Shown here piece by piece: positions 24,848 to 60,611 of a stretch of DNA of 64,000 nt. The notes below the pieces were generated by a model that was not told where the DNA came from, did not search any database, and saw nothing but the letters and a program-made list of their open reading frames with translations. Source of the stretch: an uncultured Planctomycetales bacterium (lineage in GTDB: Bacteria; Omnitrophota; Gorgyraeia; Gygaellales; Profunditerraquicolaceae); NCBI GenBank assembly GCA_964427405.1, contig CAYRUB010000006.1, positions 15,558 to 79,557 on the forward strand. Reading direction: 5' to 3'. Every line of letters starts with the position of its first letter. Position 1 is the stretch's first letter. The position numbers were made by a program, and so were the translations under genes.

Positions 24848-24880
24848 CACCGACGGGGCAACCTGTCGGTGTTTTTTTAT
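24848..24880 (+). terminator. Rho-independent terminator after tRNA-His
   Basis: CACCGACGGGGCAACCTGTCGGTG hairpin followed by T7 run. Confidence 0.6.
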
Positions 24881-24905
24881 CTGGCGATGTCCCTAGGGTT
24901 TAGGG
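24874..24905. repeat. Left copy of ~32-bp direct repeat (TTTTTATCTGGCGATGTCC[C/G]TAGGG[T/C]TTAGG); candidate island boundary
   Basis: Near-identical sequence recurs at 60580-60611. Each copy starts in the T-run of a terminator. Confidence 0.5.
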
Positions 24906-25117
24906 CGTTATTCCCGTCGGAGAATTCTGTAGTATTTTAAAACAAGATCTCCGTCGAGGAAGAGGGGAAATTTTAAAGAAAATTGTTGGAAAATAGCGCA
25001 ATTCCTCTCGTAGTTTATGGGCGCTAGTTTATGCTATATTCGCGTAATAATGCGCTTATTTCTGCTTTGATTTTTGCCATAAACTAGAGGTGAGGAATAA
25101 TCTGGATAAGAGAGGCC

Positions 25118-26728
25118 TTAAGAGGTTATTTGGGTGAGTTTCTGCCACATCGCGTACTGCTTATCCCAGTCGAGCTCGTCGGTGATAGTCCGCAGTTTAT
25201 ACTCCGGGATTTCAAATAGGCATGGATCATTTTGAAGAACGATCGCTTCCTGAATGCGAGGCGAGAGGAAGAGAAAACTCATGATCTGGTTAATGCGCTG
25301 CTGGCTTAAGTTAAGCCATCCCGAAACTTCCTTAATGTCCTTGGTTTTGTTTTTATCGATTAACTCCTGTATCTGATGAGCAAGCAAGAGATTCTGGCGC
25401 AACTGTGGCTCAGATTGTATCAATCGATCCTTGGGCGTTATGGCGTGGTATTTCAGCTCTGCCTTGCTTACATTAAACTTGTGCGATTTCTGCGTACTAT
25501 TAAGAATAATTTCGAGGATTGCTGTCCCGCCGTCATATTTTATTTCTTTCACGATGTCCTTGAGGGCAGTTCTTTTTTGATCAAGAGTATAGGCTTCCCA
25601 TGATTCAGGTTTTAGCCTTTGGTCGTCAGTCAGTTTCCTGAGGTACTCCATAACCTTTGCTTCCATGAGGCCGGCATTTACAAGCCGTGTAGGGCACTCC
25701 TGGTAGCCTCGCTTCTGCGCGTTTAAGCAGACATAATGAAAATAACGCAGCTTGCCGTATTTGATGTTATGGGTAAGATACATTGATGAATTGCAGGCCC
25801 GGCACCGCAATAGCCTGCTTAATAGGCCTATATTCTTGCCGATAGGCTTACGAGTTCCGAATTTTAGAGGGTTTGTATGCAGTGCATCTTGGACTTTCAT
25901 AAAGATTCCATCATCGAGGATTCGCTCATGTTCTCCGGGATAAAGCACATCTTGGTATCTAACTTTACCAGCATAATAGGCGTTTATGAGGATTTTCTCT
26001 ATGCCGGTGCTTGAAAACTTAACGTATCCGCGTTGTTTACCTTCTGCAAGCTTACGGACTTTTGTCCTGTAGCCTTTTGAATTTGCGATTTTAGCGACCT
26101 CTAAAAGCGAACGTTCTTTTAAGTATAGGTCAAAGAGTTCTCGCACAATTTTTGCTTCCTCTGGATTTATGATGAGTTTATGGTTTTCTTTGTCAAGATC
26201 GTAGCCTAAAGGTATGCATCCGCCGACATATTTGCCTTTTTTCCTGGCAGCGCCCATTTTATCTCGGGTCCTTTCACTGATGATTTCGCGTTCAAACTGA
26301 GCGAAGGAGAGGAGTATATTCAAGGTAAGCCTGCCCATCGAGTTTTGTGTATTGAAATGCTGCGTTACAGAAACAAAGGTGACGCTATTCTGGTCAAAAA
26401 ACTCTAATAACTGGCTGAAATCAAGCAGTGAGCGCGACAATCTATCAACTTTATAGACTACAACGCAGTTAATCCTATGGGCTTTAATATCATCAATAAG
26501 CTTCTGTAAGGCAGGTCTGTCAGTATTGGCTCCTGTAAAGCCACCGTCATCGTAGCGATCTGGTAAAATGATCCAGCCTTCAGACTTTTGGCTTTGGATG
26601 TAGCTTTCAGCGGATTCTCGTTGATTATCTAGAGAAGTGAATTCCTGCTCTAACCCTTCTGTTGTAGATACACGCGTATAAATAGCGCATTTAATTGCAG
26701 GTTTTTCTTTATCTGTCTTTTTTTCCAT
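25118..26728 (-). CDS. Large serine recombinase (resolvase/invertase N-terminal domain + recombinase domain + zinc ribbon)
   Basis: N-terminal AIYTRVSTTEGLEQEFTSLDNQRE with catalytic Ser. 536 aa. C-terminal CRAC...CLNAQ...C zinc-ribbon and coiled-coil region typical of phage serine integrases. Confidence 0.9.
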   Translation of the reverse strand: MEKKTDKEKPAIKCAIYTRVSTTEGLEQEFTSLDNQRESAESYIQSQKSEGWIILPDRYDDGGFTGANTDRPALQKLIDDIKAHRINCVVVYKVDRLSRSLLDFSQLLEFFDQNSVTFVSVTQHFNTQNSMGRLTLNILLSFAQFEREIISERTRDKMGAARKKGKYVGGCIPLGYDLDKENHKLIINPEEAKIVRELFDLYLKERSLLEVAKIANSKGYRTKVRKLAEGKQRGYVKFSSTGIEKILINAYYAGKVRYQDVLYPGEHERILDDGIFMKVQDALHTNPLKFGTRKPIGKNIGLLSRLLRCRACNSSMYLTHNIKYGKLRYFHYVCLNAQKRGYQECPTRLVNAGLMEAKVMEYLRKLTDDQRLKPESWEAYTLDQKRTALKDIVKEIKYDGGTAILEIILNSTQKSHKFNVSKAELKYHAITPKDRLIQSEPQLRQNLLLAHQIQELIDKNKTKDIKEVSGWLNLSQQRINQIMSFLFLSPRIQEAIVLQNDPCLFEIPEYKLRTITDELDWDKQYAMWQKLTQITS

Positions 26729-26736
26729 GCCGTTTC

Positions 26737-27210
26737 CTATAGGTTAAAGAATGAGAATCCATTCCAATGCGCGCCTGTGAGCTCAAAAGCAACTGCTGAA
26801 AGGCTGCGGTAATATTTATCCTTATATTCAAAACCTTTATCCAATATTTTTACGTGAACATCCTGGTCTTTGTACTTTTTATAAATAACAGTACCGGGAA
26901 TAGGCAGCCGTTTATCTCGCATAAATGGGATAGAAACGACATTCTTCCCGGCAGAGATTACCTGTGGCCTGAGCGCCTTATTATTAATAGGATCGTATTT
27001 CTCAATAAGGTCGATAATCTGCATTTTGGCTTCATCTGAAAGCCCGCCTTTAGCCGCTTCTTGCAGCTTGTAAGTGATCTTTTTTATAAGATACGGCTTA
27101 TTAGCGCAGGGAGCCTCAGCAACGTTAAAGAGAGCATTGTGTCGCTCCTGGATTTCCGGTAGAGTCGCGTTTTTAAGCGCCTGTATTTCTTCTGAGATAT
27201 TCTCTTCCAT
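26737..27210 (-). CDS. Small protein adjacent to serine recombinase (DUF2924-like; possible recombination directionality/accessory factor)
   Basis: 157 aa, encoded immediately upstream of and co-directional with the recombinase, the position typical of DUF2924 genes. Assignment by context and size; weak sequence recall. Confidence 0.3.
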   Translation of the reverse strand: MEENISEEIQALKNATLPEIQERHNALFNVAEAPCANKPYLIKKITYKLQEAAKGGLSDEAKMQIIDLIEKYDPINNKALRPQVISAGKNVVSIPFMRDKRLPIPGTVIYKKYKDQDVHVKILDKGFEYKDKYYRSLSAVAFELTGAHWNGFSFFNL

Positions 27211-27313
27211 AATTTAACCTCTCGTTAGTACACATATAGCCATACAACTCGAGATATATCAAGGTAAATAGAGAGGTATTTTTGATTGTGTAAAGAACCA
27301 AAAAGCAGTATAA

Positions 27314-27343
27314 TTGACTACAAATTGCTACATTTTGTTATAT
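27314..27343 (+). promoter_or_regulatory. Candidate sigma70-type promoter for the excisionase/defence operon
   Basis: TTGACT-18 nt-TTATAT upstream of the xis-like ORF, in a divergent intergenic region. Confidence 0.3.
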
Positions 27344-27354
27344 AAGAGGAGATT

Positions 27355-27531
27355 ATGGAAACCTTTACCGTAGAAGAATTAGCAAAATATCTTAAGTTAC
27401 ATGAATTCACGGTTCGGCGTCTCGCTAGAGAGGGGAAAATACCATCTTTTAAGGCAGGCGGTCAGTGGCGATTTCGTAAGGATGAAATTAATAAATGGTC
27501 GAAAGATAATAGAGAAAAACGCGAAGGTTAA
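27355..27531 (+). CDS. xis: Excisionase-family helix-turn-helix DNA-binding protein (58 aa; below ORF-track cut-off)
   Basis: METFTVEELAKYLKLHEFTVRRLAREGKIPSFKAGGQWRFRKDEINKW matches the excisionase/MerR-like HTH_17 pattern. AGGAG RBS 7 nt upstream. Divergent from the recombinase. Confidence 0.6.
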   Translation: METFTVEELAKYLKLHEFTVRRLAREGKIPSFKAGGQWRFRKDEINKWSKDNREKREG

Positions 27532-27552
27532 TGTAATAATTTGGAGGGTCAA

Positions 27553-29682
27553 ATGAAATCAAAAGTTTATGAAAATTTAAAAGAAGATCAAATAAAATTA
27601 ATTCAACAGAAAGCACATGATTTTCTGGGAGCGCTTATCCAAGAAGATCAATATGTAGGAGAGCTCTATTCAATTAGTTATGAATATGGATTAGTTCAAA
27701 TTCATGATCGGCATAGGATGGAAGTTGGGGGGATCCCTGGGTTAAGTTTCTTGATTGCTACCCGTATTAAGCCAGGAGAATCAATTGATTATACGAAAGA
27801 AGATTCTTCAATAATTTTGTTAAGAGTCATGGATGCAGCCCCTTTACCTAACGCAAGTGAGATAGAGCGTATCCGAGTTCAAGCAGCTCAAAGAGCTACT
27901 GGTGAAGATAGTCATTGGGATGAAGCTGGACTTATGGATGGACAAACAGCTAACCTGCTTTCTTTTGCTGGAGTTAAATGCAGAGTAATTGGCACGTTCT
28001 ATCTTGAGCTTGTTGAGGGTAAAGAAAACACTGATCTCGCTATTCGTTTTGGAGGAGACTTATCCAATTACTATCCAAATAGAGGGCTGAAGGTATATAA
28101 ACCAAATGCGAAAGCGTTAGAGGAAATAGTAAATTATTCTGATCCAACAAATATTCAGGATCATTTTGAAAAGTACGGAAGCACTGAAAAAGTAAAGTTA
28201 GGACAAATACGCTATGCTTCAACCAATAGAAAATATCAGCAAATAGATAATGTTCCAGTGTATGTTCATCCTGCTGATCTTTTGTCTCAGAAGTCTGCAT
28301 TGTTTGGAATGACTCGTACTGGAAAGTCGAATACAACAAAGATTATAGCGAAGGCGATCTTTGAGTTGCGTAATCCGAAGGATAAAATTAGCAATTCGCT
28401 TCGAATTGGTCAAATAATTTTTGATCCCAATGGAGAATATGCCAATGAGAATGTTCAAGATAATAATAATGCATTGAAGAATATCTGGGAAATTAATTGT
28501 CCGGCTTCTGATGCGGATGCTAGAAAGAAACATAAAGCAAATGAAGTCGTTACCTATGGCATTTCTGCTCATCCTAATGATCCGGAAAGAAAAATGATGC
28601 TTCTAAATTTTTATGTTGATGATAATTTACAGATAGGTAAAGAAATTGTCGATAATCTTTTCTCATCAGAAGATCCGGTATATCTAAGAAATTTCTCCCA
28701 AGTAGTGTTTGAACTTCCAGATACTCAGGATTGGAGCGCAATGACTAGGTATCGTAGAAGAGTTCTTGCTTATAGAGCAATATTAAATCGAGCAGGTTTT
28801 ACCCCACCAGCAAATATTAGTCCAAATACCGATAGATTATTTAATCCGGAGTTAGTTACTGCCCTCAACAATTACACGGGCGATAATGAAGATTTGTATC
28901 ATGCTGCTGCTGGCATATTTTCAAATACAAATCCTTCATGGGGGCAAATTGCTGATGCGTTTGAATCTCTGGATAAGTTTATTAGAGATGGGCAGAGCAC
29001 CGGATACAGTAATTTTGAAAATTGGTATGTCAATACTCGTCCTAGTGCATCGGGAGAAAGATGGGCCGATGAGGATTTTAAAAAGCTGATCGGCATATTT
29101 CAATATCCAAATGGAATACGGAGAATTGGTCGAGTTGCAAATCAACATACTGCCTTGACAAGTACTGACTATGCAATCGATATTTATAATGATTTAAAGT
29201 TGGGGAGGTTAGTTATTGTTGATCAATCAAGTGGAGATTCGGAATTAAATGAAATGGCAGCGAGACGCATAATGAGGGCTATATTTGAAGAAAATAAGAA
29301 ATATTTTACTTCCGGGAAGATACCTCCTGAGATTATTGTTTTTGTAGAAGAAGCTCATAATTTGTTGCCTCCAGATAAGGAAAAAGATTATAAGGATATA
29401 TGGGTAAGAACTGCAAAAGAAGGAGCCAAGCTAAGACTCGGTTTAGTTTATGCGACACAAGAAGTTAGCAGCATACAGAAAAATATATTGAAAAATACAG
29501 CAAATTGGTTTATCGCCCATCTTAATAATACTGATGAGACAAAAGAATTGTGTAAATATTATGACTTTGCTGATTTTGAACCTTCCATAAGACGCGCCCA
29601 AGACAAAGGGTTTCTAAGAGTTAAAACCTTAAGCAATCCTTTTGTTATACCAGTTCAAATTGATAAATTTGAGGTGAAGTGA
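27553..29682 (+). CDS. HerA-like (DUF87/FtsK-HerA superfamily) ATPase
   Basis: Walker A LFGMTRTGKSNTTK, Walker B IIVFVEEAHNLLP (DEAH-like), N-terminal barrel-like region. ATG at 27553 is preceded by GGAGGG; the track's TTG at 27541 is less likely. Confidence 0.6.
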   Translation: MKSKVYENLKEDQIKLIQQKAHDFLGALIQEDQYVGELYSISYEYGLVQIHDRHRMEVGGIPGLSFLIATRIKPGESIDYTKEDSSIILLRVMDAAPLPNASEIERIRVQAAQRATGEDSHWDEAGLMDGQTANLLSFAGVKCRVIGTFYLELVEGKENTDLAIRFGGDLSNYYPNRGLKVYKPNAKALEEIVNYSDPTNIQDHFEKYGSTEKVKLGQIRYASTNRKYQQIDNVPVYVHPADLLSQKSALFGMTRTGKSNTTKIIAKAIFELRNPKDKISNSLRIGQIIFDPNGEYANENVQDNNNALKNIWEINCPASDADARKKHKANEVVTYGISAHPNDPERKMMLLNFYVDDNLQIGKEIVDNLFSSEDPVYLRNFSQVVFELPDTQDWSAMTRYRRRVLAYRAILNRAGFTPPANISPNTDRLFNPELVTALNNYTGDNEDLYHAAAGIFSNTNPSWGQIADAFESLDKFIRDGQSTGYSNFENWYVNTRPSASGERWADEDFKKLIGIFQYPNGIRRIGRVANQHTALTSTDYAIDIYNDLKLGRLVIVDQSSGDSELNEMAARRIMRAIFEENKKYFTSGKIPPEIIVFVEEAHNLLPPDKEKDYKDIWVRTAKEGAKLRLGLVYATQEVSSIQKNILKNTANWFIAHLNNTDETKELCKYYDFADFEPSIRRAQDKGFLRVKTLSNPFVIPVQIDKFEVK

Positions 29683-32122: not shown

Positions 32123-32173
32123 ATTTTTTTGGTTAAGATTACTTAAAAATTTATTTTTAAATAGGGAAATAAG

Positions 32174-33214: not shown

Positions 33215-33220
33215 TAAAAA

Positions 33221-34396: not shown

Positions 34397-34413
34397 CTCT
34401 ATAGGTAAACATT

Positions 34414-40725: not shown

Positions 40726-40983
40726 GTGGTATAGAATACTGTTAAAATAGGAAGCGCCGCGGCTTATAACCGTGGCGCTTTTGTTTAGAGGTTGTTTTCA
40801 GAGAGTCTTTCTGACGTTCCGTATTTCTGGTCACCTTAAGGGAATTACCTCTTGTGACATGTCTTGGGAGCGTTTGTTTGGCGAATACGTAAAAATACCC
40901 ACGGATTATAGGCAAGATTTCAAGCGTAAACCGTCCTTTTTATCCCTTAAGTTTTTATTTACGTGGTATAATATGAAACAAAA

Positions 40984-43900
40984 ATGGCTATCAAATCCTG
41001 CTTTATAGGTATCGATAAATATTTAGATCCTGGTATCCGAGACTTAACGGGAGCAGTTAAGGATGCAACTGTTTTATGGTCCTTATTTTCTGATACTGTC
41101 CCTTCCATACAGGCAGACATTCTCTGCAATGAACACGCCACCTTTGATCATGTGAAAAACAGTCTTTCTTCTCTTCTTGAGTCTGCTACCCAAGAAGATA
41201 CAATTATCATTTCATTTTCCGGACATGGCACAAATCACCATCGTCTCGTAACCCATAATACGTCCAAGGCAGCTCTGGATGATACCACGGTATCAATGGA
41301 TGAGCTGGCTGGTCTCTTCAGAAAATCTAAGGCCAACGCAATTCTTTTTATCCTAGATTGCTGTTTTAGCGGAGCTGTCCCCGCAAGAGTCATTGAAGAC
41401 AGCCCTGTCCCCCGGCAAGATACTTTTTCTTTTGAAAGCTTTGCCGGTAAAGGAAGAATATTAATTGCGGCATCAAGCGCCAATGAGCCAGCCTTCGAGT
41501 TACCTGGGTGCGGTCATGGGCTTTTAACAAAGGCCTTAATTGATGCATTACAAACTACAGATGATCAGGTTAACTTAGCATCGGCAATGGACAAAATTAC
41601 TCAGATGGTGAGAGCTGAGGCTGCACGCATTGGCGTAACACAAACGCCTGTTTGGTTTGGTTTCATAGAGGGAGGTTTAACTTTCCCCTCTCTTAGGCCA
41701 GGAGCTAATTTTTATAAGGCATTTCCGGAGAGCAAAGGAATTAGGATTAGTAAAGCGATCGCAGACCTGCAGGCATTTGGGATTTCCGCACCTATTCTTA
41801 TAGAATGGGCTAGGAATTTTAAAAACGGATTGAACAATCTACAACTAGAAGCAGTCAATAAGCACAGGATATTAGATGGTCAATCTTTGCTTGTGGTGGC
41901 ACCTACAAGTTCCGGTAAAACATTTATTGGAGAAATGGCCGCAGCAAAGGCAATATCTAAAGGTGAAAAGGTAATCTTTCTTTTGCCTTACCGCGCACTA
42001 GTAAATGAGAAATATGATTCTTTTGTTCAGTTATATACTGACAATTTAGGGATTCGTGTACTTCGATGCACAGGAGATTATTCTGATGAAACTGGTCCAT
42101 TTGTCCGTGGTAAATATGAAATCGCTATATTGACATTTGAAATGTTTCTCAATTTAGTCTTAGGGAATCCAACGTTATTAAGTCAGATTGGATTAATCGT
42201 GCTTGATGAAGCTCAATTCATTACGGATCCGACAAGAGGGATAACAGTTGAGTTATTGCTTACCTTTCTTTTAGCGAATGCTGAGAAAGGTATTAGACCT
42301 CAAATAATTGCCCTCTCAGCTGTCATTGGCGGTATAAACGATTTTGATCAATGGCTCGGAGTTGAGGCTATGATTTCGTATGAGCGTCCGGTACCCCTGG
42401 AAGAGGGCGTTATGGACCGTAGCGGTAATTTTCAATTTTTAACTCCTATTGCAGAAACTAAAATAACTTCATTAATTTCTTCATATAATATTGTGCAGCG
42501 GGGAAAGAATCCAAGTCAACAAGATATGATTGTTCCATTGATGCAATTCTTAATGAAAGATCTTAAAGAGAAAGTTATTATTTTTAGGAATACTCGCGGA
42601 CCCGCTGAAGGATGCGCTGGATATCTTAGTCGTGAATTAGGATTGCTCCCGGCAAATGATGTAATAGCACAATTGCCGAATCATGATCTTTCAACCACAT
42701 CTATGCATTTACGGGAATGTTTGTCCGGAGGCGTTGCTTTTCATAATACAAACCTTAACAGAATTGAAAAAGCGATTATAGAGCGTTCGTTTCGAGACCC
42801 CGCCGGTAAGATCAGGGTATTAGTGGCCACTACAACGCTGGCCGCTGGAATAAATACGCCGGCATCAACTGTTGTTTTGGCTGAACAGGAGTTTATCGGT
42901 GAAGATAACCGGCCATTTTCCATTGCAGAGTATAAAAACATGGCTGGTAGAGCTGGCAGGTTAGGTTTTAATGAGGATGGCAAGGCAATTATATTGGCTG
43001 AACAAATGCATGAAACACAGGTTCTTTTTAAGCGATACGTACTTGGAAAACCGGAGGCATTAAGTTCTTCGTTCGATTCTGAGAATGTTGAGACTTGGAT
43101 CATTCGGTTGTTGGCTCAAATTAAAGAGGTTCCCCGACATGATATTGTGCGATTACTGGCAAATACATACGGAGGATATTTAGCGAATCGCCAGAATCCG
43201 GGATGGCGAGAAAGTATAAAACAACATCTAGAGGAATTAATGGTAAAAATGTTATCGCTAGGTCTCTTGGAGCAAGAAGGAGATCTTGTACGGCTTACCT
43301 TACTGGGTCGGGTGTGTGGTCAATCTTCGTTATCGCTTCAATCTGCCATGCGACTTGTTGAATTATTAAAGTCCTTAGGGATGATCCAGGTTAGTTCTGA
43401 GTTTCTTATGGCGATTGTCCAAGGGTTACCCGAATCAGATAATACGTATACACCACTTTTCAAAAGAGGAAGCAAGGAAAGCGGAATGCCTCGGGTAGCA
43501 TCTGCCCGGGTTGGTAATGTTGTTGTTAATTTATTACAGAAGTTTGCCGGGGGAGAGATGTTTACATATTATGCCCGATGTAAAAGAGTAGCCATTTTAT
43601 TTGACTGGATTAATGGTGTGCCTACAGAAAGAATTGAGGCTGAATACACGATGAACCCTTACCAAGGTAAAGTAGGATATGGGGATATTCGGCGTTTTGC
43701 GGATGCCACTAGGTATCATCTTAGAACAGTCGCACCTATTGCTAGTCTTATTTTAGTTGATCGTTGCCCGACCGGTGAGTCAATAGATATTTTGCTAAAA
43801 CAATTAGAAGTTGGTGTGCCGAGAGACTCTCTTGATCTACTTAAACTACCAATCGGCTTTGAAAGAGGTGAATATTTGGCACTCTACGGAAAAGGTATCA

Positions 43901-44010
43901 AGACCTATGAAGCTTTCTGGGCTGTACCGGGAGAGAATCTTATTAGAATCCTTGGCTCAGATCGCGCTGCGGAAATTGAAAAGGCTCGAAGTAAATTAGT
44001 TGTTAAATAA
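40984..44010 (+). CDS. Caspase-like (peptidase C14) domain fused to SF2 (Ski2/Hel308-like) helicase with C-terminal winged-helix region
   Basis: Caspase His-Gly (ISFSGHG) and Cys (ILDCCFSGA) dyads. Helicase motifs I APTSSGKT, II VLDEAQF, III LSAV, VI MAGRAGRLG. 1008 aa. Confidence 0.7.
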   Translation: MAIKSCFIGIDKYLDPGIRDLTGAVKDATVLWSLFSDTVPSIQADILCNEHATFDHVKNSLSSLLESATQEDTIIISFSGHGTNHHRLVTHNTSKAALDDTTVSMDELAGLFRKSKANAILFILDCCFSGAVPARVIEDSPVPRQDTFSFESFAGKGRILIAASSANEPAFELPGCGHGLLTKALIDALQTTDDQVNLASAMDKITQMVRAEAARIGVTQTPVWFGFIEGGLTFPSLRPGANFYKAFPESKGIRISKAIADLQAFGISAPILIEWARNFKNGLNNLQLEAVNKHRILDGQSLLVVAPTSSGKTFIGEMAAAKAISKGEKVIFLLPYRALVNEKYDSFVQLYTDNLGIRVLRCTGDYSDETGPFVRGKYEIAILTFEMFLNLVLGNPTLLSQIGLIVLDEAQFITDPTRGITVELLLTFLLANAEKGIRPQIIALSAVIGGINDFDQWLGVEAMISYERPVPLEEGVMDRSGNFQFLTPIAETKITSLISSYNIVQRGKNPSQQDMIVPLMQFLMKDLKEKVIIFRNTRGPAEGCAGYLSRELGLLPANDVIAQLPNHDLSTTSMHLRECLSGGVAFHNTNLNRIEKAIIERSFRDPAGKIRVLVATTTLAAGINTPASTVVLAEQEFIGEDNRPFSIAEYKNMAGRAGRLGFNEDGKAIILAEQMHETQVLFKRYVLGKPEALSSSFDSENVETWIIRLLAQIKEVPRHDIVRLLANTYGGYLANRQNPGWRESIKQHLEELMVKMLSLGLLEQEGDLVRLTLLGRVCGQSSLSLQSAMRLVELLKSLGMIQVSSEFLMAIVQGLPESDNTYTPLFKRGSKESGMPRVASARVGNVVVNLLQKFAGGEMFTYYARCKRVAILFDWINGVPTERIEAEYTMNPYQGKVGYGDIRRFADATRYHLRTVAPIASLILVDRCPTGESIDILLKQLEVGVPRDSLDLLKLPIGFERGEYLALYGKGIKTYEAFWAVPGENLIRILGSDRAAEIEKARSKLVVK

Positions 44011-47334: not shown

Positions 47335-47788
47335 GCCATATTGTTTTAGATATTTTAGTTCAAGTTTAATTTCTGTTTCTTGAAATATCTGTTTTTGTAC
47401 TCTGAAGCGGAGAAATTTTCCCGCACCAAATTTTGCCGGAGCGAGCGTAGCTGTAGGGTGGCGTGTTCGCACCACGCCCGCCACCATGTTTTTGTTTTGA
47501 ACCACAGACTGCAAGAGGCGGGGCATCCCGCGACCCTGGGTTTCTTTGATTTTGGAAGCAGGAACGGACAACCCTGAACCTTCAATTTATATCCTACCTG
47601 CATACAGAGAGTTTTTCTGTCGCGACGTATTTCTGGTCCGCCAAGATGACTCAGAAAATGATTTACAATGGGGAAGAGGAGGTATAGAATAAACTCATCA
47701 TAAAGAGGTGGTAAATGAGGTTCAAATAGCAAAATTTTAAGGCAACTCCTAAAAATAAGGGGTTGCCTGTTTATTTTAAGGAGGCGTT

Positions 47789-51328: not shown

Positions 51329-51480
51329 ATACCCTTCCCGTAACATTATTTACCCTGTATACAGAGAGTCTTTCTGCCGCGCCGTATTTCTGGGCGTCCT
51401 TACCGGGGATACCTCTCAAATTTGCCCATAGCTGTTTACAGAGGGGGCTTCCCCTTGTCCAATATTACTGCCCGGCTTAA

Positions 51481-51625
51481 GAAGGAATGCCTAGTGGCAT
51501 AGAAACGCGTTGACAAATCAAATAGTTATGATAAATTAACGTCGTAAGTAGATTAAATCGTCCCGAGTTGTGAAGGGGTAAATCCCGGACGTTAAAAAAA
51601 TAAAACCTTCGTTGGGCTTAATACT
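51481..51625 (+). repeat. Copy 1 of a ~145-bp duplicated promoter/leader module (IR ATGCC-N4-GGCAT, TTGACA-16-TAAATT, terminator-like leader)
   Basis: Near-identical to 52988-53132. Contains an operator-like inverted repeat, a promoter and a GC stem plus T-run just before the gene start. Confidence 0.6.
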
Positions 51626-51654
51626 CGGCGGAGGTTTTTATCTTTTCTAAACAA

Positions 51655-52878: not shown

Positions 52879-52987
52879 CATAGGGTTTTAGAAGAAGTGC
52901 CCATCTTTTATGATAAACAAACGAATAGCAAAAGGATTGACCTACGGCATTCCCATAGGGACGCAGTAATATCATTCTTGGGATTGA

Positions 52988-53132
52988 GAAGGAATGCCTA
53001 GTGGCATAGAAACGCGTTGACAAATCAAATAGTTATGATAAATTAACGTCGTAAGTAGATTAAATCGTCCCGAGTTGTGAAGGGGTAAATCCCGGACGTT
53101 AAAAAAGTAAAACCTTCGTTGGCCGTAATGTG
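52988..53132 (+). repeat. Copy 2 of the ~145-bp duplicated promoter/leader module
   Basis: 120 nt essentially identical to 51481-51600, then related terminator-like GC stem + T-run. Confidence 0.6.
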
Positions 53133-53181
53133 GCCGGCGGGGGTTTTTGTTTTTAAGTTGTTTATATAATTTATAAAGAAT

Positions 53182-54426: not shown

Positions 54427-54430
54427 TAGA

Positions 54431-55204
54431 ATGAAAAACAGCTTAAATCTTCATCCGCTGGTAGAAGGAACAAGAAAAAGTATCGGTGCCAAACCCTATT
54501 TAGACAAGGGCTGTATTATTGGCAGGTACTCTGGCCTTGACATTCGTGTTAGTCTCAATAGCCTGGATCGAGCACTAAGTATTATGGATACTTTATTCAA
54601 GGCTTTTGAGAAGAAAGGGATTGTGGTCGGTATCAAGAAGGATGACTATAAATACATAACAAGCGTGAATGTTTTTGGAGAAACTTTCGCTATTGATATG
54701 TATGAGAAGATTAATAATATTAAGAAAGGCCAGGATCAGTATGGCTACAATCAGTATGACTATATTCCTAACGGAAACCTAGTTCTACGAATTAAAGATA
54801 CGCCTTATGGCGTTCGCAGTGAATGGAAAGATGGTGAAAGAAAAAAACTAGAGGCGTGTTTAGATAGTTTCATTAATGGACTAATTTTAGCGGCAGAAAA
54901 GCAGAAAGCAAACAGACTTAAAAGAGAGCAAGAAAAACGTGAATGGGAAGAGAATGAGCGTAGAGGAGAAGAAGAACAGAAAATAAGGCAACAGGAACAA
55001 GCGCTTATTGATATGTTGGAAAAAGAAGCAATGGGGTGGCATAAAAGCAAGATAATCCGGTCTTATATTGAAGCCGCCACTACTGCGCATATCCAAAAGA
55101 ATGGCAAGGTTGAGTCTGGAAGCGAATTTGATAAATGGAAAACATGGGCTGGCCAACAGGCAGACCGATTAGATCCTTTAAAAGAAATGTTTGTTAATTC
55201 TTAG
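54431..55204 (+). CDS. Hypothetical coiled-coil protein
   Basis: Start chosen at MKNSLNLHP to avoid overlap. Long charged helix KANRLKREQEKREWEENERRGEEEQKIRQQEQ. Confidence 0.35.
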   Translation: MKNSLNLHPLVEGTRKSIGAKPYLDKGCIIGRYSGLDIRVSLNSLDRALSIMDTLFKAFEKKGIVVGIKKDDYKYITSVNVFGETFAIDMYEKINNIKKGQDQYGYNQYDYIPNGNLVLRIKDTPYGVRSEWKDGERKKLEACLDSFINGLILAAEKQKANRLKREQEKREWEENERRGEEEQKIRQQEQALIDMLEKEAMGWHKSKIIRSYIEAATTAHIQKNGKVESGSEFDKWKTWAGQQADRLDPLKEMFVNS

Positions 55205-55209
55205 GGGGC

Positions 55210-55944
55210 ATGGTGGAAGGTGTATGTAGATTTTGTGGCCAGAGTAAAAAACTGATAAAAGCTCATGTTGTTCCTGAGAAGTTTTTCAGTTTAGACGTGC
55301 AAAATCCTCTTCTTATGATTGCCGCTGATAAGCCTTATGAAACTAGATGTCCTATAGGAATATATGATGAAAATATTCTTTGTGCGGATTGCGACAATAA
55401 ATTAGGGGTTTATGACGAGGAAGCACAAAAGCTATTTTTGACAAATATAGGCATCTACAAACATAAAGATAAGGATTTGCATGAAATACCTCCAAGCGCA
55501 TATAACTATGAAAAGCTAAGATTATTTTTTATTTCATTGATTTGGAGAGCTTCCATTTCTTCAATGAATGCTTTCAGAAATGTGAGCCTAGGGCAAAAGT
55601 TCGAAAAGATGGCATTAGATATATTAAAGGATCCAGCATTAGACAGAGAAGATCTATTTTCTGTACTCATATTTAAACTTAAAGAGAATCCAGATATTCC
55701 TTTAGAAAAAGTTTATATTGAACCGTGGTCTTTCCGCTGTGAAGGAGCCAGGATGTATTCTTTTGTATTCGCGGGCTATAATATTCATATAAAAGTAGAT
55801 AAGCGCAAATTAAACCAACCGATTGCAGATTTCTTTTTGAAATCAAATAGCAACTTATTTATATTATCTCAGAATTCAGAACAAGCACTATCCCTTATGG
55901 CTAGAATTACTACTCAACACAACCAACTGAAATCGAATAATTGA
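55210..55944 (+). CDS. Putative HNH-like endonuclease domain protein
   Basis: CRFCGQSKKLIKAHVVPE ... CADCDNKLG (CxxC...H...CxxC) at the N-terminus. Confidence 0.35.
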   Translation: MVEGVCRFCGQSKKLIKAHVVPEKFFSLDVQNPLLMIAADKPYETRCPIGIYDENILCADCDNKLGVYDEEAQKLFLTNIGIYKHKDKDLHEIPPSAYNYEKLRLFFISLIWRASISSMNAFRNVSLGQKFEKMALDILKDPALDREDLFSVLIFKLKENPDIPLEKVYIEPWSFRCEGARMYSFVFAGYNIHIKVDKRKLNQPIADFFLKSNSNLFILSQNSEQALSLMARITTQHNQLKSNN

Positions 55945-55967
55945 TTTAAAGATGTTTATTCTTCAAT

Positions 55968-56260
55968 GTCCGGGTCGAGAGAGGCGGACATTCGTATCTC
56001 TTAATGCCTCAAGAAGTTAGATAATTTCTGGTCAGAAAATACCGGACAAATAGGACAAAATTAGCGAGGAATTACCTCTCTAAATCCAGAATATTCTTGA
56101 TATATTGAGGTATTGCGCATATAATTAGGCTAATAAATTCAGAGAGGTTTCTACTCTGCTCATGAGAGTGGGACCCCATATTTTCCTACGCAATAAGCTA
56201 CAAAAAATCCTCGATGGGGTAACTTGTCGAGGATTTTTATCTTGGGGTTGCTAATGATAG
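55968..56260 (+). repeat. Copy 1 of ~250-bp repeat family: IR TGTCCG-N12-CGGACA, tandem CGGACAA direct repeats, TTGATA-17-TATAAT promoter, ~110-nt transcript ending at intrinsic terminator
   Basis: Shared with 60300-60586 and, diverged, 63040-63230. Promoter at 56097-56125; terminator hairpin ATCCTCGAT...GTCGAGGAT + T-run at 56207-56241. Confidence 0.6.
56132..56241 (+). ncRNA. Candidate ~110-nt sRNA/leader transcribed from the repeat-borne consensus promoter
   Basis: Predicted TSS 7 nt after TATAAT; conserved 5' AGAGAGGTTTC...GAGAGTGGGACCCCA; ends at intrinsic terminator. Paralogous unit at 60467-60586. Confidence 0.3.
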
Positions 56261-56269
56261 TGGTACAAT

Positions 56270-57322
56270 ATGTCTTTGGAGATATCTAGCATGCAAAAAA
56301 CAAAGATGCCGGGGAATAGAATTTACCCCTACTTAATAAGCGTAGGGTTTGTTTTAATCATGACTTTTTTGGGTGAGTTTGTTAAAAGAAAGCTTGAGCC
56401 GACAAATATCGTGATGTTTTATCTTTTGGCTGTAGTAATAGTTGCCATTCGTTGGGGGCAGGGGCCAGCGATCGTAACCTCAATATTGAGTGTTCTGGCT
56501 TTTGATTTCTTTTTAGTTCCGCCATATCTCACCCTTAATGTTCATGATTTTGAGTATCTTTTTACCTTTGGGGCTTTTCTGGTAGTTGGTCTTATTGTGA
56601 GTACGCTTACTTCAAAAGTAAGAGCACAAATTATCCAACGCCAGACTGAGAAACTTCATTGCGCGCTTTTGAACTCAATTTCCCATGATTTAAAAACACC
56701 GCTTGTATCGATCACTGGGGCATTGAGCACTATTTTGGATAATACATCAAAGCTTAGCCAACAGCAAAAGAATGGGCTTTTGGAAACGGCCCGCGGTGAA
56801 TCTGAAAGATTGAATCACATAGTAAATAATATTCTGGATATGACTAGGACAGAATCCGGCGTATTACGGATTTCTAAAAAGCCATGTGATTTAAGGGATT
56901 TTATAGGAGCTTGTTTTGAACAGCTAAAAGATAAGATAGGCAGTCGAAACATAAAAATAAATATTCCAAAGGAGATGCCTGAAGTAAACGTAGATTTTCC
57001 GTGTATGCTCAAGGCGTTCTTAAATGTTATTGATAATGCTTTAAAGTATTCCCCTGATGGTTCGGAGATTGAAATCGGAGCTTCTTGTATCGACGGAAAG
57101 GCGCGTATTTTTGTGCAAGATTATGGTTATGGAATTCCCAAGGAAGACTTGGGACGTATTTTTAACAAGTTCTACCGGGTCCAGTGCGCTCAAAATATAT
57201 TGGGAACTGGTTTGGGATTAAGTATTTCAAAAAATATTATTGAGGCTCATGGCGGCTATATTAGCGCAGAAAGTGTTCTTGGTAAAGGTACCACGTTTAT
57301 TATAGAATTTCCGCTAGAGTAA
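56270..57322 (+). CDS. Sensor histidine kinase, KdpD-like C-terminal portion (TM domain + HisKA + HATPase_c); lacks N-terminal KdpD/Usp sensor domains
   Basis: Four TM helices; H-box SISHDLKTPL; N, G1, G2 boxes (IDNALKYS, QDYGYGIP, GTGLGLSI). Confidence 0.75.
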   Translation: MSLEISSMQKTKMPGNRIYPYLISVGFVLIMTFLGEFVKRKLEPTNIVMFYLLAVVIVAIRWGQGPAIVTSILSVLAFDFFLVPPYLTLNVHDFEYLFTFGAFLVVGLIVSTLTSKVRAQIIQRQTEKLHCALLNSISHDLKTPLVSITGALSTILDNTSKLSQQQKNGLLETARGESERLNHIVNNILDMTRTESGVLRISKKPCDLRDFIGACFEQLKDKIGSRNIKINIPKEMPEVNVDFPCMLKAFLNVIDNALKYSPDGSEIEIGASCIDGKARIFVQDYGYGIPKEDLGRIFNKFYRVQCAQNILGTGLGLSISKNIIEAHGGYISAESVLGKGTTFIIEFPLE

Positions 57323-57329
57323 AAGTATA

Positions 57330-58031
57330 ATGGCAGAACAAAACAATTTAAGAATTCTGGTTGTTGACGATGAAAAATCCATACGTAGTTTTCTTAAGAC
57401 ATCTCTTTCGGCGCACGGTTACGTTGTTTTTGAAGCAGCAAAAGGTAAAGAAGCCCTAACAGAGTCGGTTAGTGTTCATCCGGATGTTATTATTCTTGAC
57501 TTAGGACTTCCTGATATGGATGGAAGAGAGGTCATTGCAAATATCCGTAAACGGACAAAAACCCCGATAATCATTTTATCAGTAAGGGATGATTCGCTGG
57601 AGAAGATCGCTGCGCTTGATGCCGGAGCGGATGACTATCTTACCAAACCTTTTTCTGTCGGAGAGTTGTTGGCCCGCTTGAAGGCGGTGATGAGGCGTCT
57701 TTTGCCTCTAGAAAAGGACCAAATCCTACGAACAGGCAAGCTTATGATGGATATTACTAGTCGTCGGGTTACTGTTGAAGATAACCAGATTGATTTATCT
57801 CCTACTGAATATGACACTCTCAAGCTTCTTCTTTTAAACTCTGGGAAGGTGCTTACTCATAAACAAATTCTGCGTGAAATTTGGGATAAAACAGAAGATT
57901 ATGAGGGTATTTTACATCTTTTACGCGTAACGATGAGTAATCTGCGCAGCAAAATTGAACCTAACCCGGATCGCCCTATGTACATTCTTACGGAGCCGGG
58001 CGTGGGCTACCGCATGAGGTCTGATGATTAA
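57330..58031 (+). CDS. OmpR/KdpE-family response regulator
   Basis: REC domain (ILVVDDE...ILDLGLPDMDG) plus winged-helix trans_reg_C (LSPTEYDTLKLL...GVGYRM). Confidence 0.85.
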   Translation: MAEQNNLRILVVDDEKSIRSFLKTSLSAHGYVVFEAAKGKEALTESVSVHPDVIILDLGLPDMDGREVIANIRKRTKTPIIILSVRDDSLEKIAALDAGADDYLTKPFSVGELLARLKAVMRRLLPLEKDQILRTGKLMMDITSRRVTVEDNQIDLSPTEYDTLKLLLLNSGKVLTHKQILREIWDKTEDYEGILHLLRVTMSNLRSKIEPNPDRPMYILTEPGVGYRMRSDD

Positions 58032-58282
58032 ATTCTCGTTTTGACCTTTTTTTGACTTGCCTTCCTTGCCCGTCAAGCGTATCGTAATCCAATAGAATAA
58101 ATACAAAAATAAGTTGATTTTACACAGTGCCAGAGTGTTTCATTCTCTGGTTTTTTGTTAAATATTATGAAGAAAATAGCTATTTTTTATACTGTTACTC
58201 TAGGAATATTCTGGGAAGCGGTGTATGTAATGGTAATTATCGGCATAGGTTGGCTATTTGTATTAGCATTTCGGTATATACG

Positions 58283-59788
58283 ATGATACTTAGACCTCAA
58301 GTAAATGATATTAAGAACATCGGTTATTATCTGGGAAGAATAATCCTCGGTATCGGCCTGACCATGTTTTTACCGTTTATTACGGGGCTGGTTTTATTTA
58401 GAGAGCCTAATCCTGCTTTGGATTTCTTGATCAGCGCTAATATTGCTATATTTATCGGTTTGGCTTTAAGTTGGCTGTGTAAAACAAATAAGGAGCTAAA
58501 TTCTGGTCAGGCAATGGTTGTTATTGCTCTTTCATGGCTGGCCGCGATGGCCCTTAGTGCTATCCCGTTATTATTAAGTGGTCACTATAAGTCATTTCTT
58601 GATGCTTGTTTTGAAACCATGTCGGGTTTTACCACCACTGGGCTGACTCTTGTGCAAGATTTGGATCACCTTTCCCAGAGCCATAATTTATGGCGTCATT
58701 TAGGGCCTTTTCTGGGAGGGCAGGGAATCGCTATTATTGCGATTTCATTCTTGGTCAAGGGCACCAGCGGGACATTTAATCTGTATCTTGGGGAAGGGCG
58801 TGATGAAAAATTAGTCCCTAATGTTATCAACACGGCGCGGTTTATTTGGGTGATTAGCATAGTGTACTTAATCCTAGGGACCATTGTGTTAGGTTTGGTA
58901 GGGATCTCTATTGGATTGAAACCTCAAAGCGCATTCTTTCACGGTGCCTGTATTTTTATGGCTGGATTTGATACCGCAGGTTTCTCCCCGCAATCACCAA
59001 ACATTCTTTATTATCACAGCCTGATCTATGAAATTGTTATAATTTTCTTTATGGTCATCGGCTCATTTAACTTTAATTTGCATTATCAAATCTGGAAGGG
59101 GAATTTTAAAGAAATTTGGAAGAATATCGAAACGCGGACTTTCTTGTTTGTGATTATGATTGTTACTTTGATTACCCTGGCTGGCTTGAGGCGCTTGGGT
59201 GTTTATTCGGATGGAATGATACTTTTTCGCAAGGGTTTTTTTCAACTTGTCTCCGGACAAACTACAACCGGTTATATGACAATATATGCTCAGCAGTTTA
59301 TTAAGGAGTGGGGAGATTTAGCGTTGAGCGGGATAATTCTTTCTATGGCGCTGGGAGGTTGCGCTTGTTCTACGGCAGGGGGAATTAAAATGTTACGCGT
59401 AGGAATTATCTATAAGGCATTCAGGCAGGATATAAAAGCAATGATGCTTTCGCCAAGTGCTATCGTGGTGCAGAAATTTCATCATATAAAAACGATGTTT
59501 ATTGAAGATAAGCAGGTACGAGCAGTTTTGATTGTTACCTTAGGGTATCTTTTTCTTTACGGATTAGGTACTTTAGTAGGGGTAGGATTGGGATATCCTT
59601 TTTTGGAATCTCTCTTTGAGTCAACTTCTGCGGCTGCCAATGTTGGGCTTTCCTGTGGGATAACTGATACAAGTATGCCGGCAATATTAAAAGTGACCTA
59701 TATAATAGAAATGTGGGCAGGAAGACTGGAGTTAATGTCGGTTTTTGCGTTATTTGGTTTTTTTGTAGCGTATGTGAAAGGTAGATAA
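58283..59788 (+). CDS. TrkH/KtrB family potassium transporter
   Basis: Multi-TM protein with repeated pore-loop signatures (MSGFTTTG, GFDTAG, QTTTGY, SAAANVGLS). Start chosen at MILRPQV; the track's extended N-terminus lies in intergenic DNA. Confidence 0.8.
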   Translation: MILRPQVNDIKNIGYYLGRIILGIGLTMFLPFITGLVLFREPNPALDFLISANIAIFIGLALSWLCKTNKELNSGQAMVVIALSWLAAMALSAIPLLLSGHYKSFLDACFETMSGFTTTGLTLVQDLDHLSQSHNLWRHLGPFLGGQGIAIIAISFLVKGTSGTFNLYLGEGRDEKLVPNVINTARFIWVISIVYLILGTIVLGLVGISIGLKPQSAFFHGACIFMAGFDTAGFSPQSPNILYYHSLIYEIVIIFFMVIGSFNFNLHYQIWKGNFKEIWKNIETRTFLFVIMIVTLITLAGLRRLGVYSDGMILFRKGFFQLVSGQTTTGYMTIYAQQFIKEWGDLALSGIILSMALGGCACSTAGGIKMLRVGIIYKAFRQDIKAMMLSPSAIVVQKFHHIKTMFIEDKQVRAVLIVTLGYLFLYGLGTLVGVGLGYPFLESLFESTSAAANVGLSCGITDTSMPAILKVTYIIEMWAGRLELMSVFALFGFFVAYVKGR

Positions 59789-59790
59789 AA

Positions 59791-60276
59791 GTGAGAAGTT
59801 TTTTCTTATTATTGGTGTTGTGCTTGGTGCCGACTGTTTCTAGTTCTAACTGCTATGCTCAGACACCCACGAGTTTAGAATTGATAAACAATGCCAAACA
59901 GTATGACGGTAAAACTGTTAACTATAGAGGAGAGGTCATAGGAGAAGTAATGGTCCGCGGAGAGTTCGCTTGGCTACATGTGAATGATGGTATTATTGCA
60001 ATCGGTATTTGGGTTCCAAAGACAATGGTTCAAGATATTCTCTATGCCGGGAATTATCATAAAAAAGGAGATATCGTAGAAGTTTTCGGGACGTTTCATC
60101 GAAGCTGTTTGGAGCATGGGGGAGATTTAGATATTCATGCCTCTGAAATAAATAAAATAACTCCGGGAAGTTTGGTTATTCAGCCCATCAGTAGAAAGAA
60201 AGTTTATATCGGAGTCTCGTCTTTAGTACTCGTTTTGTTATTCTATGCATTAAAGAAATTTTTTCAGCGCAGATAA
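59791..60276 (+). CDS. Hypothetical secreted/membrane-anchored protein (161 aa)
   Basis: N-terminal signal peptide, C-terminal hydrophobic helix; GTG start overlapping the trkH stop. Confidence 0.35.
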   Translation: MRSFFLLLVLCLVPTVSSSNCYAQTPTSLELINNAKQYDGKTVNYRGEVIGEVMVRGEFAWLHVNDGIIAIGIWVPKTMVQDILYAGNYHKKGDIVEVFGTFHRSCLEHGGDLDIHASEINKITPGSLVIQPISRKKVYIGVSSLVLVLLFYALKKFFQRR

Positions 60277-60299
60277 CGTTAATATCTGGATTTAATTAT

Positions 60300-60586
60300 A
60301 AATGTCGTCACTCAAGGGCGGACATTTTGTATTCATTTGTCTCTCTGATAGTTGCGTCATTTCTAGCCAAAAAATACCGGACAAAACGGACAAGTTGGCG
60401 AGGAATAGCCTTCTCTAAAACCAGAATATTCTTGATATATTAAGGTATTACGCATATAATTAGGCTAATAATTTTAGAGAGGTTTCCCTTTGTGGAATAC
60501 GAGAGGGACCCCAGTAATATCATTCTCCTCGCTGTATTGGAGAGTTTAAGGCCTATGATCGCAATAGCGGTTGTAGGCCTTTTTAT
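60300..60586 (+). repeat. Copy 2 of the ~250-bp IR/DR/promoter repeat family, including a predicted ~118-nt transcript (60467-60586) ending at terminator AAGGCCTA...TAGGCC+T-run
   Basis: ATGTCG-N12-GGACAT inverted repeat, CGGACAAAACGGACAAG direct repeats, TTGATA-17-TATAAT promoter at 60432-60460, terminator at 60548-60586. Confidence 0.6.
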
Positions 60587-60611
60587 CTGGCGATGTCCGT
60601 AGGGCTTAGGA
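60580..60611. repeat. Right copy of ~32-bp direct repeat; candidate island boundary
   Basis: TTTTTATCTGGCGATGTCCGTAGGGCTTAGGA versus TTTTTATCTGGCGATGTCCCTAGGGTTTAGGG at 24874. Confidence 0.5.

Follow-up and report, generated by a model that had tools for sequence, protein, structure and literature searches.

A probable stack of putative integrative elements downstream of tRNA-His in an uncultured member of the Omnitrophota, with conserved direct repeats as probable element end-pieces

We analyzed a 64,000-nucleotide stretch of DNA (the window) from an uncultured bacterium that NCBI lists under Planctomycetales and GTDB places in the Omnitrophota (Gorgyraeia; Gygaellales; Profunditerraquicolaceae; assembly GCA_964427405.1, contig CAYRUB010000006.1, positions 15,558 to 79,557 of the forward strand). 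The subject is the region behind its tRNA-His gene, where an earlier reading made from the letters alone (the sequence-only reading) had described one island of ~35.7 kb bracketed by 32-bp direct repeats. We found the paired repeats at 24874-24904 and 60580-60610, both on the forward strand, 31 nt long and identical at 29 of 31 positions; their likeness reaches 36 nt at 89% identity. The pattern TTTTTATCTGGCGATGTCCSTAGGGYTTAGG has exactly two matches in the window and zero in 100 dinucleotide-preserving shuffles, even at 3 mismatches. As had been described, each copy begins in the T-run of a terminator: the left one behind tRNA-His, in the T-run of a predicted 11-bp stem, and the right one in that of a predicted 15-bp stem (Table 1). 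The right terminator lies ~90 nt downstream of a near-consensus promoter, TTGATA-17-TATAAT, which lies in a sequence repeated at 56077, 60412 and 63128, in keeping with the earlier description of a repeat-borne short transcript.

The gene next to the left repeat encodes a large serine recombinase (LSR). Its stop codon lies 314 nt from the end of the tRNA gene, and the integrase gene is thus at the tRNA-proximal end of the element. The catalytic domain (Pfam Resolvase, residues 15-167, E = 1e-38) carries a YTRVST motif and is followed by Recombinase (189-285) and Zn_ribbon_recom (302-364) domains. It matches the TP901-1 integrase (E = 6e-27), with weaker matches of the protein to Bxb1-like, SPbeta, PhiC31 and A118 integrases (A118 C-terminal domain, E = 1e-4). 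The adjoining gene encodes a DUF2924 protein, described as RAMA-like (PMC11342252). DUF2924 genes also stand beside LSR genes in L014, L019, L030, L039, L047, L053 and L069 (L numbers denote metagenome loci, or loci from metagenome-assembled genomes [MAGs], collected for comparison with the window), and by this linkage the DUF2924 protein appears to be a conserved partner of the LSR. An HTH_17 protein is, by its domain, a candidate directionality factor or regulator. All three genes that the sequence-only reading had placed at the left end were thus confirmed; we treat the HTH_17 and DUF2924 proteins as candidate accessory factors only.

Anti-phage defence genes make up most of the cargo that follows: HerA/NurA, two DNA methyltransferases (one fused to ParB), PDC-S21/DUF4917 and SIR2, and further a caspase-DEAD helicase fusion (HamB-like), a PD-T4-6-like kinase, AbiU2, TPR and DUF4238 proteins and unknowns. 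No Pfam family of phage structural proteins (capsid, terminase, portal, tail) was present among 37 open reading frames (ORFs), and no ORF of the interval has the Phage_integrase domain of tyrosine integrases. We rejected a prophage because of the missing structural genes and because the repeat motif has no match in IMG/VR contigs, and an integron because no IntI-type tyrosine recombinase was found by Pfam. GC content is 0.36-0.41 within the interval versus 0.42 in the 24.8 kb left of the tRNA (the left core), and tetranucleotide distance to that core is 0.20-0.31 versus 0.14-0.16 when 5-kb pieces of the core are measured. This composition check, proposed by the sequence-only reading, sets the interval apart from the left core and gives no return to core values past 60611, the DNA staying foreign up to the end of the window.

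Table 1. Features of the region behind tRNA-His (positions in the window).
Feature	Position	Strand	Remarks
tRNA-His (GTG)	24730-24804	+	ARAGORN, Rfam; 3' end ..GCCACCCA
Type-A trailer	24818-24879	+	hairpin CTCATTG..CAATGAG 24818-24836, terminator stem 24847-24872, T-run
Left motif copy (left repeat of the sequence-only reading)	24874-24909	+	nearly invariant in 49 distinct module sequences
Type-A flank, motif to LSR stop codon	24910-25117	+	carries 9-mer triad, then AGAGAGG
9-mer TAGTTTATG	25011-25019, 25025-25033	+	direct copies; inverted copy 25078-25086
LSR, 536 aa, clade A	25118-26728	-	Pfam Resolvase, Recombinase, Zn_ribbon_recom
DUF2924 protein (RAMA-like DNA-binding domain)	26737-27210	-	Pfam, E = 3e-33
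HTH_17 protein, excisionase/MerR type, 58 aa	27355-27531	+	E = 1.8e-16
Cargo, mostly anti-phage defence	27541-55944	+	Pfam, PADLOC
Right-end unit 1	56097-56178	+	promoter TTGATA-17-TATAAT 56097-56125, tRNA-like hairpin, ACCCCA 56173-56178
Degenerate module copy	56179-56265	+	stem TCCTCGA..TCGAGGA, T-run, then TTTTTATCTTGGGGTTGC; terminator and motif 56207-56265
Recombinase-less cassette	56270-60276	+	KdpD-like histidine kinase (DUF4118), OmpR-type response regulator, TrkH-family transporter, 161-aa protein; Pfam
Right-end unit 2	60432-60513	+	promoter 60432-60460, tRNA-like hairpin, ACCCCA 60508-60513
Type-B trailer	60514-60581	+	hairpin TTCTCCTCG..GGAGAG, terminator stem 60548-60581
Right motif copy (right repeat of the sequence-only reading)	60580-60615	+	probable part of older type-B module
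Type-B flank	60616-60717	+	ends ~74 nt past motif start, then D4-type repeat 60654-60717
Further array units	60731-63222	+	DUF134/methyltransferase/FeMo-co-like/DsrE-like operon, sigma-70-r2-like protein 62618-63070, promoter unit 63148-63222
Fourth terminator and motif remnant, strongly degenerate	63688-63750	+	downstream of 124-aa ORF

The 31-nt repeat is the most conserved block of a module of 110-350 nt. A degenerate 24-nt version of the motif matched 63 metagenome loci, ~60 of them true homologues from Omnitrophota metagenomes or MAGs, and gave zero matches in IMG/VR viral contigs. Searching other genomes for the repeat, a check suggested by the sequence-only reading, thus placed it within a longer module at ~60 loci. 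In order, the module consists of the last bases of tRNA-His (..CCACCCCA), a small hairpin, an intrinsic terminator and the motif TTTTTATCTG.CGATGTCCCTAGGA.TTAGGGC, then a ~110-nt flank, AAAATAGGCCAATTCCTCTC, two direct 9-mers 14 nt apart, ~45 nt, an inverted 9-mer and AGAGAGG. After AGAGAGG comes the stop codon of an LSR gene in eight cases, with DUF2924 next where the contig extends. The stop codon lies ~250 nt past the motif in the window and in L014, L019, L030, L039, L041, L053 and L059, and the layout of motif, 9-mers and AGAGAGG seen in the window has its like beside LSR genes in L014, L019, L030, L039, L041, L059 and L069. The terminator stem covaries across loci, with compensatory changes in 7 of 8 pairs, and the motif stays constant (49 distinct module sequences). 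The motif can fold into a small hairpin (TGTCC..8 nt..GGGCA; 24887-24907 and 60593-60613), with a fully complementary GGACA in the right copy; changes across loci are one-sided only, so this hairpin lacks covariation support.

What precedes the module is of two kinds. An intact tRNA-His stands upstream of 27 motif copies, and non-tRNA DNA ending in ..CCCCA stands upstream of ~34. About 20 of the latter have the promoter TTGATA-17-TATAAT and a hairpin AGAGAGGTTTCCCC..GAGAGGGACCCCA, as in right-end unit 2 of the window; L017/L040, L027/L071 and L048 have a clear T-arm remnant instead. The hairpin before ACCCCA is similar to the part of tRNA-His made up of variable loop, T arm and acceptor end, and equally long. 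The far ends in the window keep only ACCCCA of tRNA-His, behind a diverged hairpin as long as the 3' half of the tRNA. Copies without an LSR gene have the flank cut at many different points, as expected for decay, and several copies per locus, forming arrays, were found in L008, L017, L033, L047, L063 and L069.

The three 9-mers change in concert across loci (TAGTTTATG, TATTTAATG or TATATAATG), which suggests that they are three binding sites of one protein. Triads beside an LSR gene are always matched; mismatched ones, off by one base, occur only where no LSR gene comes next (L055, L063, L068, L070). There was no clean sorting of the 9-mer words by LSR sub-clade (identity 84-88% within word groups, 76-86% between). 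Motif and 9-mers are probably bound by proteins, of which the LSR, DUF2924 and HTH_17 proteins are examples; that the invariant motif in particular is a DNA site for one of these three is our guess.

Trailers (hairpin and terminator) and flanks occur in subtypes A, B and C. Pairs of the same type predominate (A/A 16, B/B 26, C/C 9), a B trailer is joined to an A flank in 3 cases, and an A trailer is joined to a B flank in 0. The subtype follows the LSR clade in both clade A cases (the window and L069, whose LSR copy is 88% identical to that of the window) and in all seven clade B cases (whose LSRs have 75-88% identity among themselves and 44-57% with that of the window). Type A was found at loci whose flanking genes are 72, 45 and 28% identical to those of the window, and type B at 83, 70, 56, 45, 43 and 31%; between L038 and L061, tRNA and module are 96.8% identical and the flanks 71%. 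In these sequence comparisons, then, the module subtype is tied to the LSR clade and not to host lineage. In the window, the left motif copy has a type-A trailer and a type-A flank, matching L009, and the right one has a type-B trailer and a type-B flank, matching L003 and L008. A crossover within the motif would make hybrid ends; neither end in the window is hybrid, which speaks against such a crossover.

Comparisons among other strains located junctions. L065 equals L035 plus an 8.85-kb cassette (L065 129-8977; empty allele L035 6393-6402), with flanks 98.7-99.2% identical. The insertion is precise, with an 8-10-bp repeat; the cassette is bounded by CCACCCCA, and CCACCCCAAT, the tRNA 3' end, is all that the two alignments have in common. 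Its genes encode an AlwI-type restriction enzyme, two methyltransferases, ThsB-TIR and a STAND ATPase, and no recombinase. In the pairs L022/L051 and L038/L057, one module is found both behind tRNA-His and behind a promoter-hairpin unit, with 100% identity that starts exactly at ACCCCA. L060 has the same tRNA as L038, and their modules differ from the first base past GTAATATC. Taken together, these junctions put the exchange ~70 nt left of the motif, where ACCCCA meets the start of the trailer, and the ends of the element interval in the window would therefore be about 24805 and 60513.

The flanking genes have their relatives in Candidatus Omnitrophota MAGs, and seven MAG loci share upstream genes, tmRNA and the tRNA-Pro/Arg/His cluster with the window. 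None of the island genes is present in these seven, nucleotide homology of the closest (L005 and L006) ends at 24804, and the content downstream of tRNA-His is different in each. In L005, behind a flank of 83% nucleotide identity, a different LSR (11224-12720, 489 aa, full domain set) is only 25% identical to that of the window; its coding 3' end overlaps tRNA-His, so that two unrelated LSR families use one tRNA end. L003 has the remnant of an LSR C-terminus 5 kb downstream of tRNA-His, and in L008 two small ORFs come first, then a degenerate module and a homologue of the sigma-like gene at 62618 in the window. The empty site imagined in the sequence-only reading (tRNA-His, terminator, repeat, DUF134 operon) has analogues only in distant relatives: at least nine loci with tRNA-His followed by a type-B module, and L007, with a DUF134 gene 290 nt past tRNA-His. 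Trailers like the type-B one of the window stand directly behind intact tRNA-His in L003, L014, L022, L030, L032, L038, L039, L060 and L061. We did not accept L007 as an empty site, because its DUF134 protein is only 52% identical and no other genes are common; it is suggestive only. Exact-protein look-ups returned one short contig identical to the window for each of the flanking DUF748 and DUF134 proteins and a 26.7-kb contig identical to the window for the LSR; the histidine kinase was not on record. Contig L001 stops exactly where the tRNA does, which was considered as a sign of strain variation and rejected: L001 and L073 overlap by 30 nt (k-1), and a conserved tRNA k-mer that other genomes also contain explains the break.

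To the right of the cargo, features of the left end recur. ACCCCA, the repeat of the target 3' end, is found at 56173 and 60508, and remnants of units at 63148 and 63688; all stand behind one tRNA gene. Promoter-hairpin units 1 and 2 are followed by a second hairpin and a terminator (56097-56239 and 60432-60585), and the third unit (63148-63222) has neither these nor ACCCCA. In L016 an intact motif lies behind a homologue of the gene that precedes the fourth remnant. The flank of the right repeat has neither 9-mer triad nor LSR gene and leads on to a D4-type repeat and the DUF134 promoter. No second 9-mer half-site was found near the right end of the island; the only cluster in the window is that at 25011-25086 (9-mers as such are too short to be telling). 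The DUF134 operon sits in comparable arrays elsewhere (L063, L054, L045), and it was thus probably acquired too.

On balance, we think that the region behind tRNA-His is a tandem array of integrative elements stacked by successive LSR insertions. With similar, moderate confidence, we take the two 31-nt repeats to be related copies of a constrained element end-piece, not the target duplication of one insertion. A complete element would have, at its tRNA-proximal end, a replacement trailer (hairpin, terminator, ~36-nt motif, ~110-nt flank and 9-mer triad), then the LSR and DUF2924 genes on the reverse strand and the cargo, and at its far end an outward-facing promoter driving a tRNA-like hairpin that ends in ACCCCA. 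The LSR would recombine the element with the 3' end of tRNA-His, within ..ACCCCA | first trailer bases, so that the element's own trailer and terminator come to stand behind the tRNA and the previous trailer, with its motif copy, is pushed to the far end. Repeated insertion would stack elements, older ones losing their recombinase. From linkage to the module and from precedent, we infer that this LSR catalyzes the insertions; the 3' end of tRNA-His (..GCCACCCA) would be their target and the left boundary of the array, and the crossover would have the position given above.

Applied to the window, this model would make the left repeat part of a resident type-A LSR defence element of 31.4 kb (24805-56178), with right-end unit 1 as its proposed right end. 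The next 4.3 kb (56179-60513) would be a K+ two-component/TrkH cassette that lacks a recombinase and carries a separate degenerate trailer, and the right repeat would belong to an older, truncated type-B trailer, with the DUF134 operon and remnants behind it. Excision of the whole interval would leave GTTCGATCCCCGTTAGCCACCC[C]AGTAATATCATTCTCCTCG in the chromosome (the bracketed C depending on the side of the crossover) and ATACGAGAGGGACCCCATAAACCTTGTATCTCATTG in the circle; excision of 24805-56178 only would give GTTAGCCACCCATATTTTCCTACGCAATAAGC and CATGAGAGTGGGACCCCATAAACCTTGTATCTC, respectively. The sequence-only reading holds in part: the DNA by tRNA-His is strain-specific and compositionally foreign, and its genes are absent from relatives, but the interval is probably more than one element, split at 56173-56178. 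The repeats do not appear to mark this integration, since ~60 loci carry the motif inside a longer module and the likely crossover is ~70 nt to the left; the alternative it had offered, repeats as remnants of another event, is favored by the comparisons. It had also allowed for a widespread terminator-associated motif unrelated to mobility; this proved half right, the motif recurring widely at terminators but going together with mobility.

Several observations weigh against this model. The L065 cassette lacks a recombinase and so shows the position of the junction, not the acting enzyme. In L069, a 3.65-kb insert with three secreted-protein genes lies between the module and the LSR gene; the 9-mer region is duplicated over 100-135 bp to either side of it (496-605 and 4252-4365) and is possibly another recombination site. 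The three hybrids of B-type trailer and A-type flank (L028, L035, L065) indicate that exchange at or near the motif has happened at least once. At the proposed crossover we found no convincing dyad symmetry of the LSR type; a dyad at ACCCCA|GTAATATC, in which CGAGAGGGAC and GTTCTCCTCG of the reconstructed attP form an imperfect inverted repeat with a spacing of 12 nt (7/10, by eye), was rejected and not used. Neither an empty site nor a circular junction was found for the window strain, and the same-population contigs (L001, L002, L073) show the occupied state only. Lastly, conservation within the 24 searched positions of the motif is inflated by the way the loci were collected; the ten positions after them, which were not selected for, are still conserved.

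Three other explanations deserve comparison. The interval could be one 35.7-kb element that crossed over inside the 31-nt motif, the common core of attL and attR, in which case excision would give CCTGTCGGTGTTTTTTTATCTGGCGATGTCC..TTAGGACATTGTATTTATTAGCC in the chromosome and GGTTGTAGGCCTTTTTATCTGGCGATGTCC..TTAGGGCGTTATTCCCGTCGG in the circle. The motif is indeed the only strongly conserved stretch common to both ends, it keeps its ~250-nt distance from the LSR stop codon in many loci, B/A hybrids do occur, and L038 and L057, from one sample, share an exact 127-nt repeat that includes it. We nevertheless consider this unlikely: it needs an attB with a type-A trailer and a type-B flank, found in 0 of 64 copies; the trailer type to the left of the motif tracks LSR clade and not host lineage; both copies in the window are unmixed; and the mappable junctions are at CCACCCCA or ACCCCA, 70 nt upstream. 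Strand exchange by LSRs takes place at a 2-bp core, and long identity is not required. Alternatively, the repeats could be reiterated regulatory units (promoter, small RNA, terminator, operator) between operons, with no role in site-specific recombination, the differences in gene content arising from gene flux and homologous recombination. The near-consensus promoter, strong terminators and conserved predicted small RNA fit this, as do copies before the two-component operon, the DUF134 operon and a secreted-protein gene, the small sigma-like gene often beside them, and the recurrence of units between short cassettes that lack a recombinase; the ~100-bp duplication in L069 could likewise stem from homologous recombination. 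We give it little credence, since all copies found sit in arrays that start at tRNA-His, each beginning with the last bases of the tRNA, and since the tight, repeated linkage to LSR and DUF2924 genes, the precise L035/L065 insertion with its 8-10-bp repeat, and the tracking of LSR clade by module subtype speak against it.

We find it rather more improbable that the region is an integron-like capture platform whose LSR uses the palindromic 9-mer site by its own gene to insert or excise small circular cassettes with the same site. The concerted change of the 9-mers and the restriction of mismatched triads to copies without a following LSR would agree with this, as would the duplicated 9-mer regions around the three-gene L069 insert, directly by the LSR gene, a 108-bp indel by which L035 lacks exactly the 9-mer region that L028 has, and the many array units of 0.5-4 kb with one to four genes. 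The mismatches are only one base, however, and the words do not sort cleanly with LSR sub-clades; the L069 insert is also bounded by CCACCCCA..CCCCAGTAAT; the 9-mer site, at least 62 bp, is longer than typical LSR sites; and the window has no second such site. A related and quite speculative idea is that the array, beyond a set of decayed islands, is an active, LSR-run gene-capture platform. Its short, recombinase-less, often defensive cassettes would be moved in and out in trans at a reiterated structured junction made up of the tRNA-like ACCCCA end, a terminator, the 36-nt motif and the covarying 9-mer palindrome, and the promoter-driven tRNA-like small RNA at each junction would share in control. 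If true, the platform would be a tRNA-anchored, serine-recombinase counterpart of integrons.

The preferred reading, a stacked array with exchange at the tRNA end, has parallels in known systems. Staphylococcal cassette chromosome (SCC) elements, including SCCmec, use the LSRs CcrAB or CcrC, insert at the 3' end of rlmH (orfX) and have 15-18-bp direct repeats. Their serial insertion gives composite arrays that include recombinase-less units, and usually two recombinases are needed. The array here is similar in its probable LSR-mediated insertion at the 3' end of a conserved gene, its repeat-bounded units and its composite make-up; it is unlike SCC in that the SCC target is a protein gene and SCC has no tRNA, replacement terminator module or DUF2924 partner. 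SCC elements are also cited in the description of the Dehalococcoides ssrA genomic islands (McMurdie et al. 2011, PMC3146451), the closest described system. There, an LSR of ~540 aa is encoded on the reverse strand directly by attL, 20-bp repeats of the ssrA 3' end delimit stacked units with adaptive cargo, and units without an integration module were interpreted as cis-mobilizable remnants (PMC3146451). Shared features are the reverse-strand LSR gene of similar size by the attL end, the 3' end of a small stable RNA gene as probable target, a short 3'-end repeat with extra conserved sequence beside it, stacked units, units without a recombinase, and adaptive cargo. The array differs in its target (tRNA-His, not ssrA), in a 3'-end repeat of ~6-8 nt versus 20, in having a DUF2924/RAMA-like partner versus a second small serine recombinase (DsiA), in the long trailer module and promoter-driven tRNA-like hairpin that mark the ends, and in phylum (Omnitrophota). 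No DsiA/CcrA-like second serine recombinase stands by the LSR in the window, the neighbor being DUF2924 and not a resolvase-domain protein. The statement in the sequence-only reading that serine integrases normally leave no long direct repeats was too strong, given the 15-20-bp repeats of SCC and ssrA islands.

Islands in tRNA genes found by Islander and TIGER have an intact tRNA, an island and a displaced 3' fragment in direct orientation, with the displaced part restored by the element and tandem arrays formed via the regenerated site (PMC4383910, PMC7192596), a layout that the array here may share. They overwhelmingly use tyrosine integrases, unlike the array here, in which the tRNA fragment is minimal and mainly trailer and terminator would be restored. 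Integron arrays are alike by analogy only, with a recombinase gene at one end, short cassettes (many promoterless or single-operon) and a reiterated structured site; here IntI, attI and attC are absent and the junctions go with the 3' end of a tRNA. As judged from sequence, what sets the array apart from the ssrA islands and SCC elements is the tRNA-His target, the DUF2924 partner, the element-borne trailer module and the promoter-driven tRNA-like end.

Serine integrases that target tRNA genes were termed unknown in a 2014 survey and made up 14 of 297 candidates in 2020, when experimental proof was asked for (PMC4383910, PMC7192596). Such integrases are thus hardly documented, and here a whole family (~60 loci, at least three LSR clades) is found at one tRNA gene of a little-studied, uncultured phylum. 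Because the element ends are well defined, attB and attP candidates can be synthesized and tested directly. The elements would move anti-phage defence genes and ion-transport regulators and so bear on how Omnitrophota acquire defence. For island-finding software, a long conserved direct repeat by an integrase gene need not be the crossover site, and accepting such a repeat at face value can split arrays wrongly. What accessory sites the pair of LSR and RAMA-like protein needs could come to light from the invariant motif, the concerted 9-mer triad and the tRNA-like small transcript.

Some further features of the region were noted. A small RNA of ~115 nt is predicted from the promoter-hairpin unit (from 60467-60585 and its copies) and is kept in at least 17 metagenome loci; Rfam gave nothing for the module or the promoter-borne transcript, either in the whole window at the gathering threshold or in 24600-25300 and 55900-60800 at E ≤ 1. 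The product of the sigma-like gene at 62618-63070 has 150 aa and matches sigma-70 region 2 weakly. Homologues of it directly adjoin module or promoter units in L008, L029, L036, L046, L048 and L027/L071, and this proximity suggests that the protein is functionally tied to the junction promoter. Each of the three junction promoters has direct repeats GGACAA-N3/4-GGACA shortly before its -35 box (56039-56057, 60374-60391, 63108-63122), which may serve as an operator for the OmpR-type regulator (57330-58031). Within the cargo, a 1008-aa fusion of Peptidase_C14 caspase and DEAD/HamB-like helicase (40984-44010) is followed by the PD-T4-6-like Ser/Thr kinase and AbiU2, a set that may be an uncharacterized defence gene combination. 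The tmRNA gene (16111-16517), untouched by insertion, has an unusually long predicted tag (ANTQVSRLGTFVTPSFTARPMFVPAFGLN), kept with variation in L005, L006 and L009. The island holds other repeat families, mostly upstream of genes and with a common core ..TGTTTACAGAGAG..: D3 at 40793-40830, 47599-47636 and 51356-51393, D4 at 51416-51479 and 60654-60717, and a 162-nt D1 pair at 51461-51622 and 52968-53129. D3 and D4 are present in L008 too, where a D4-like sequence stands directly behind the tRNA-His terminator.

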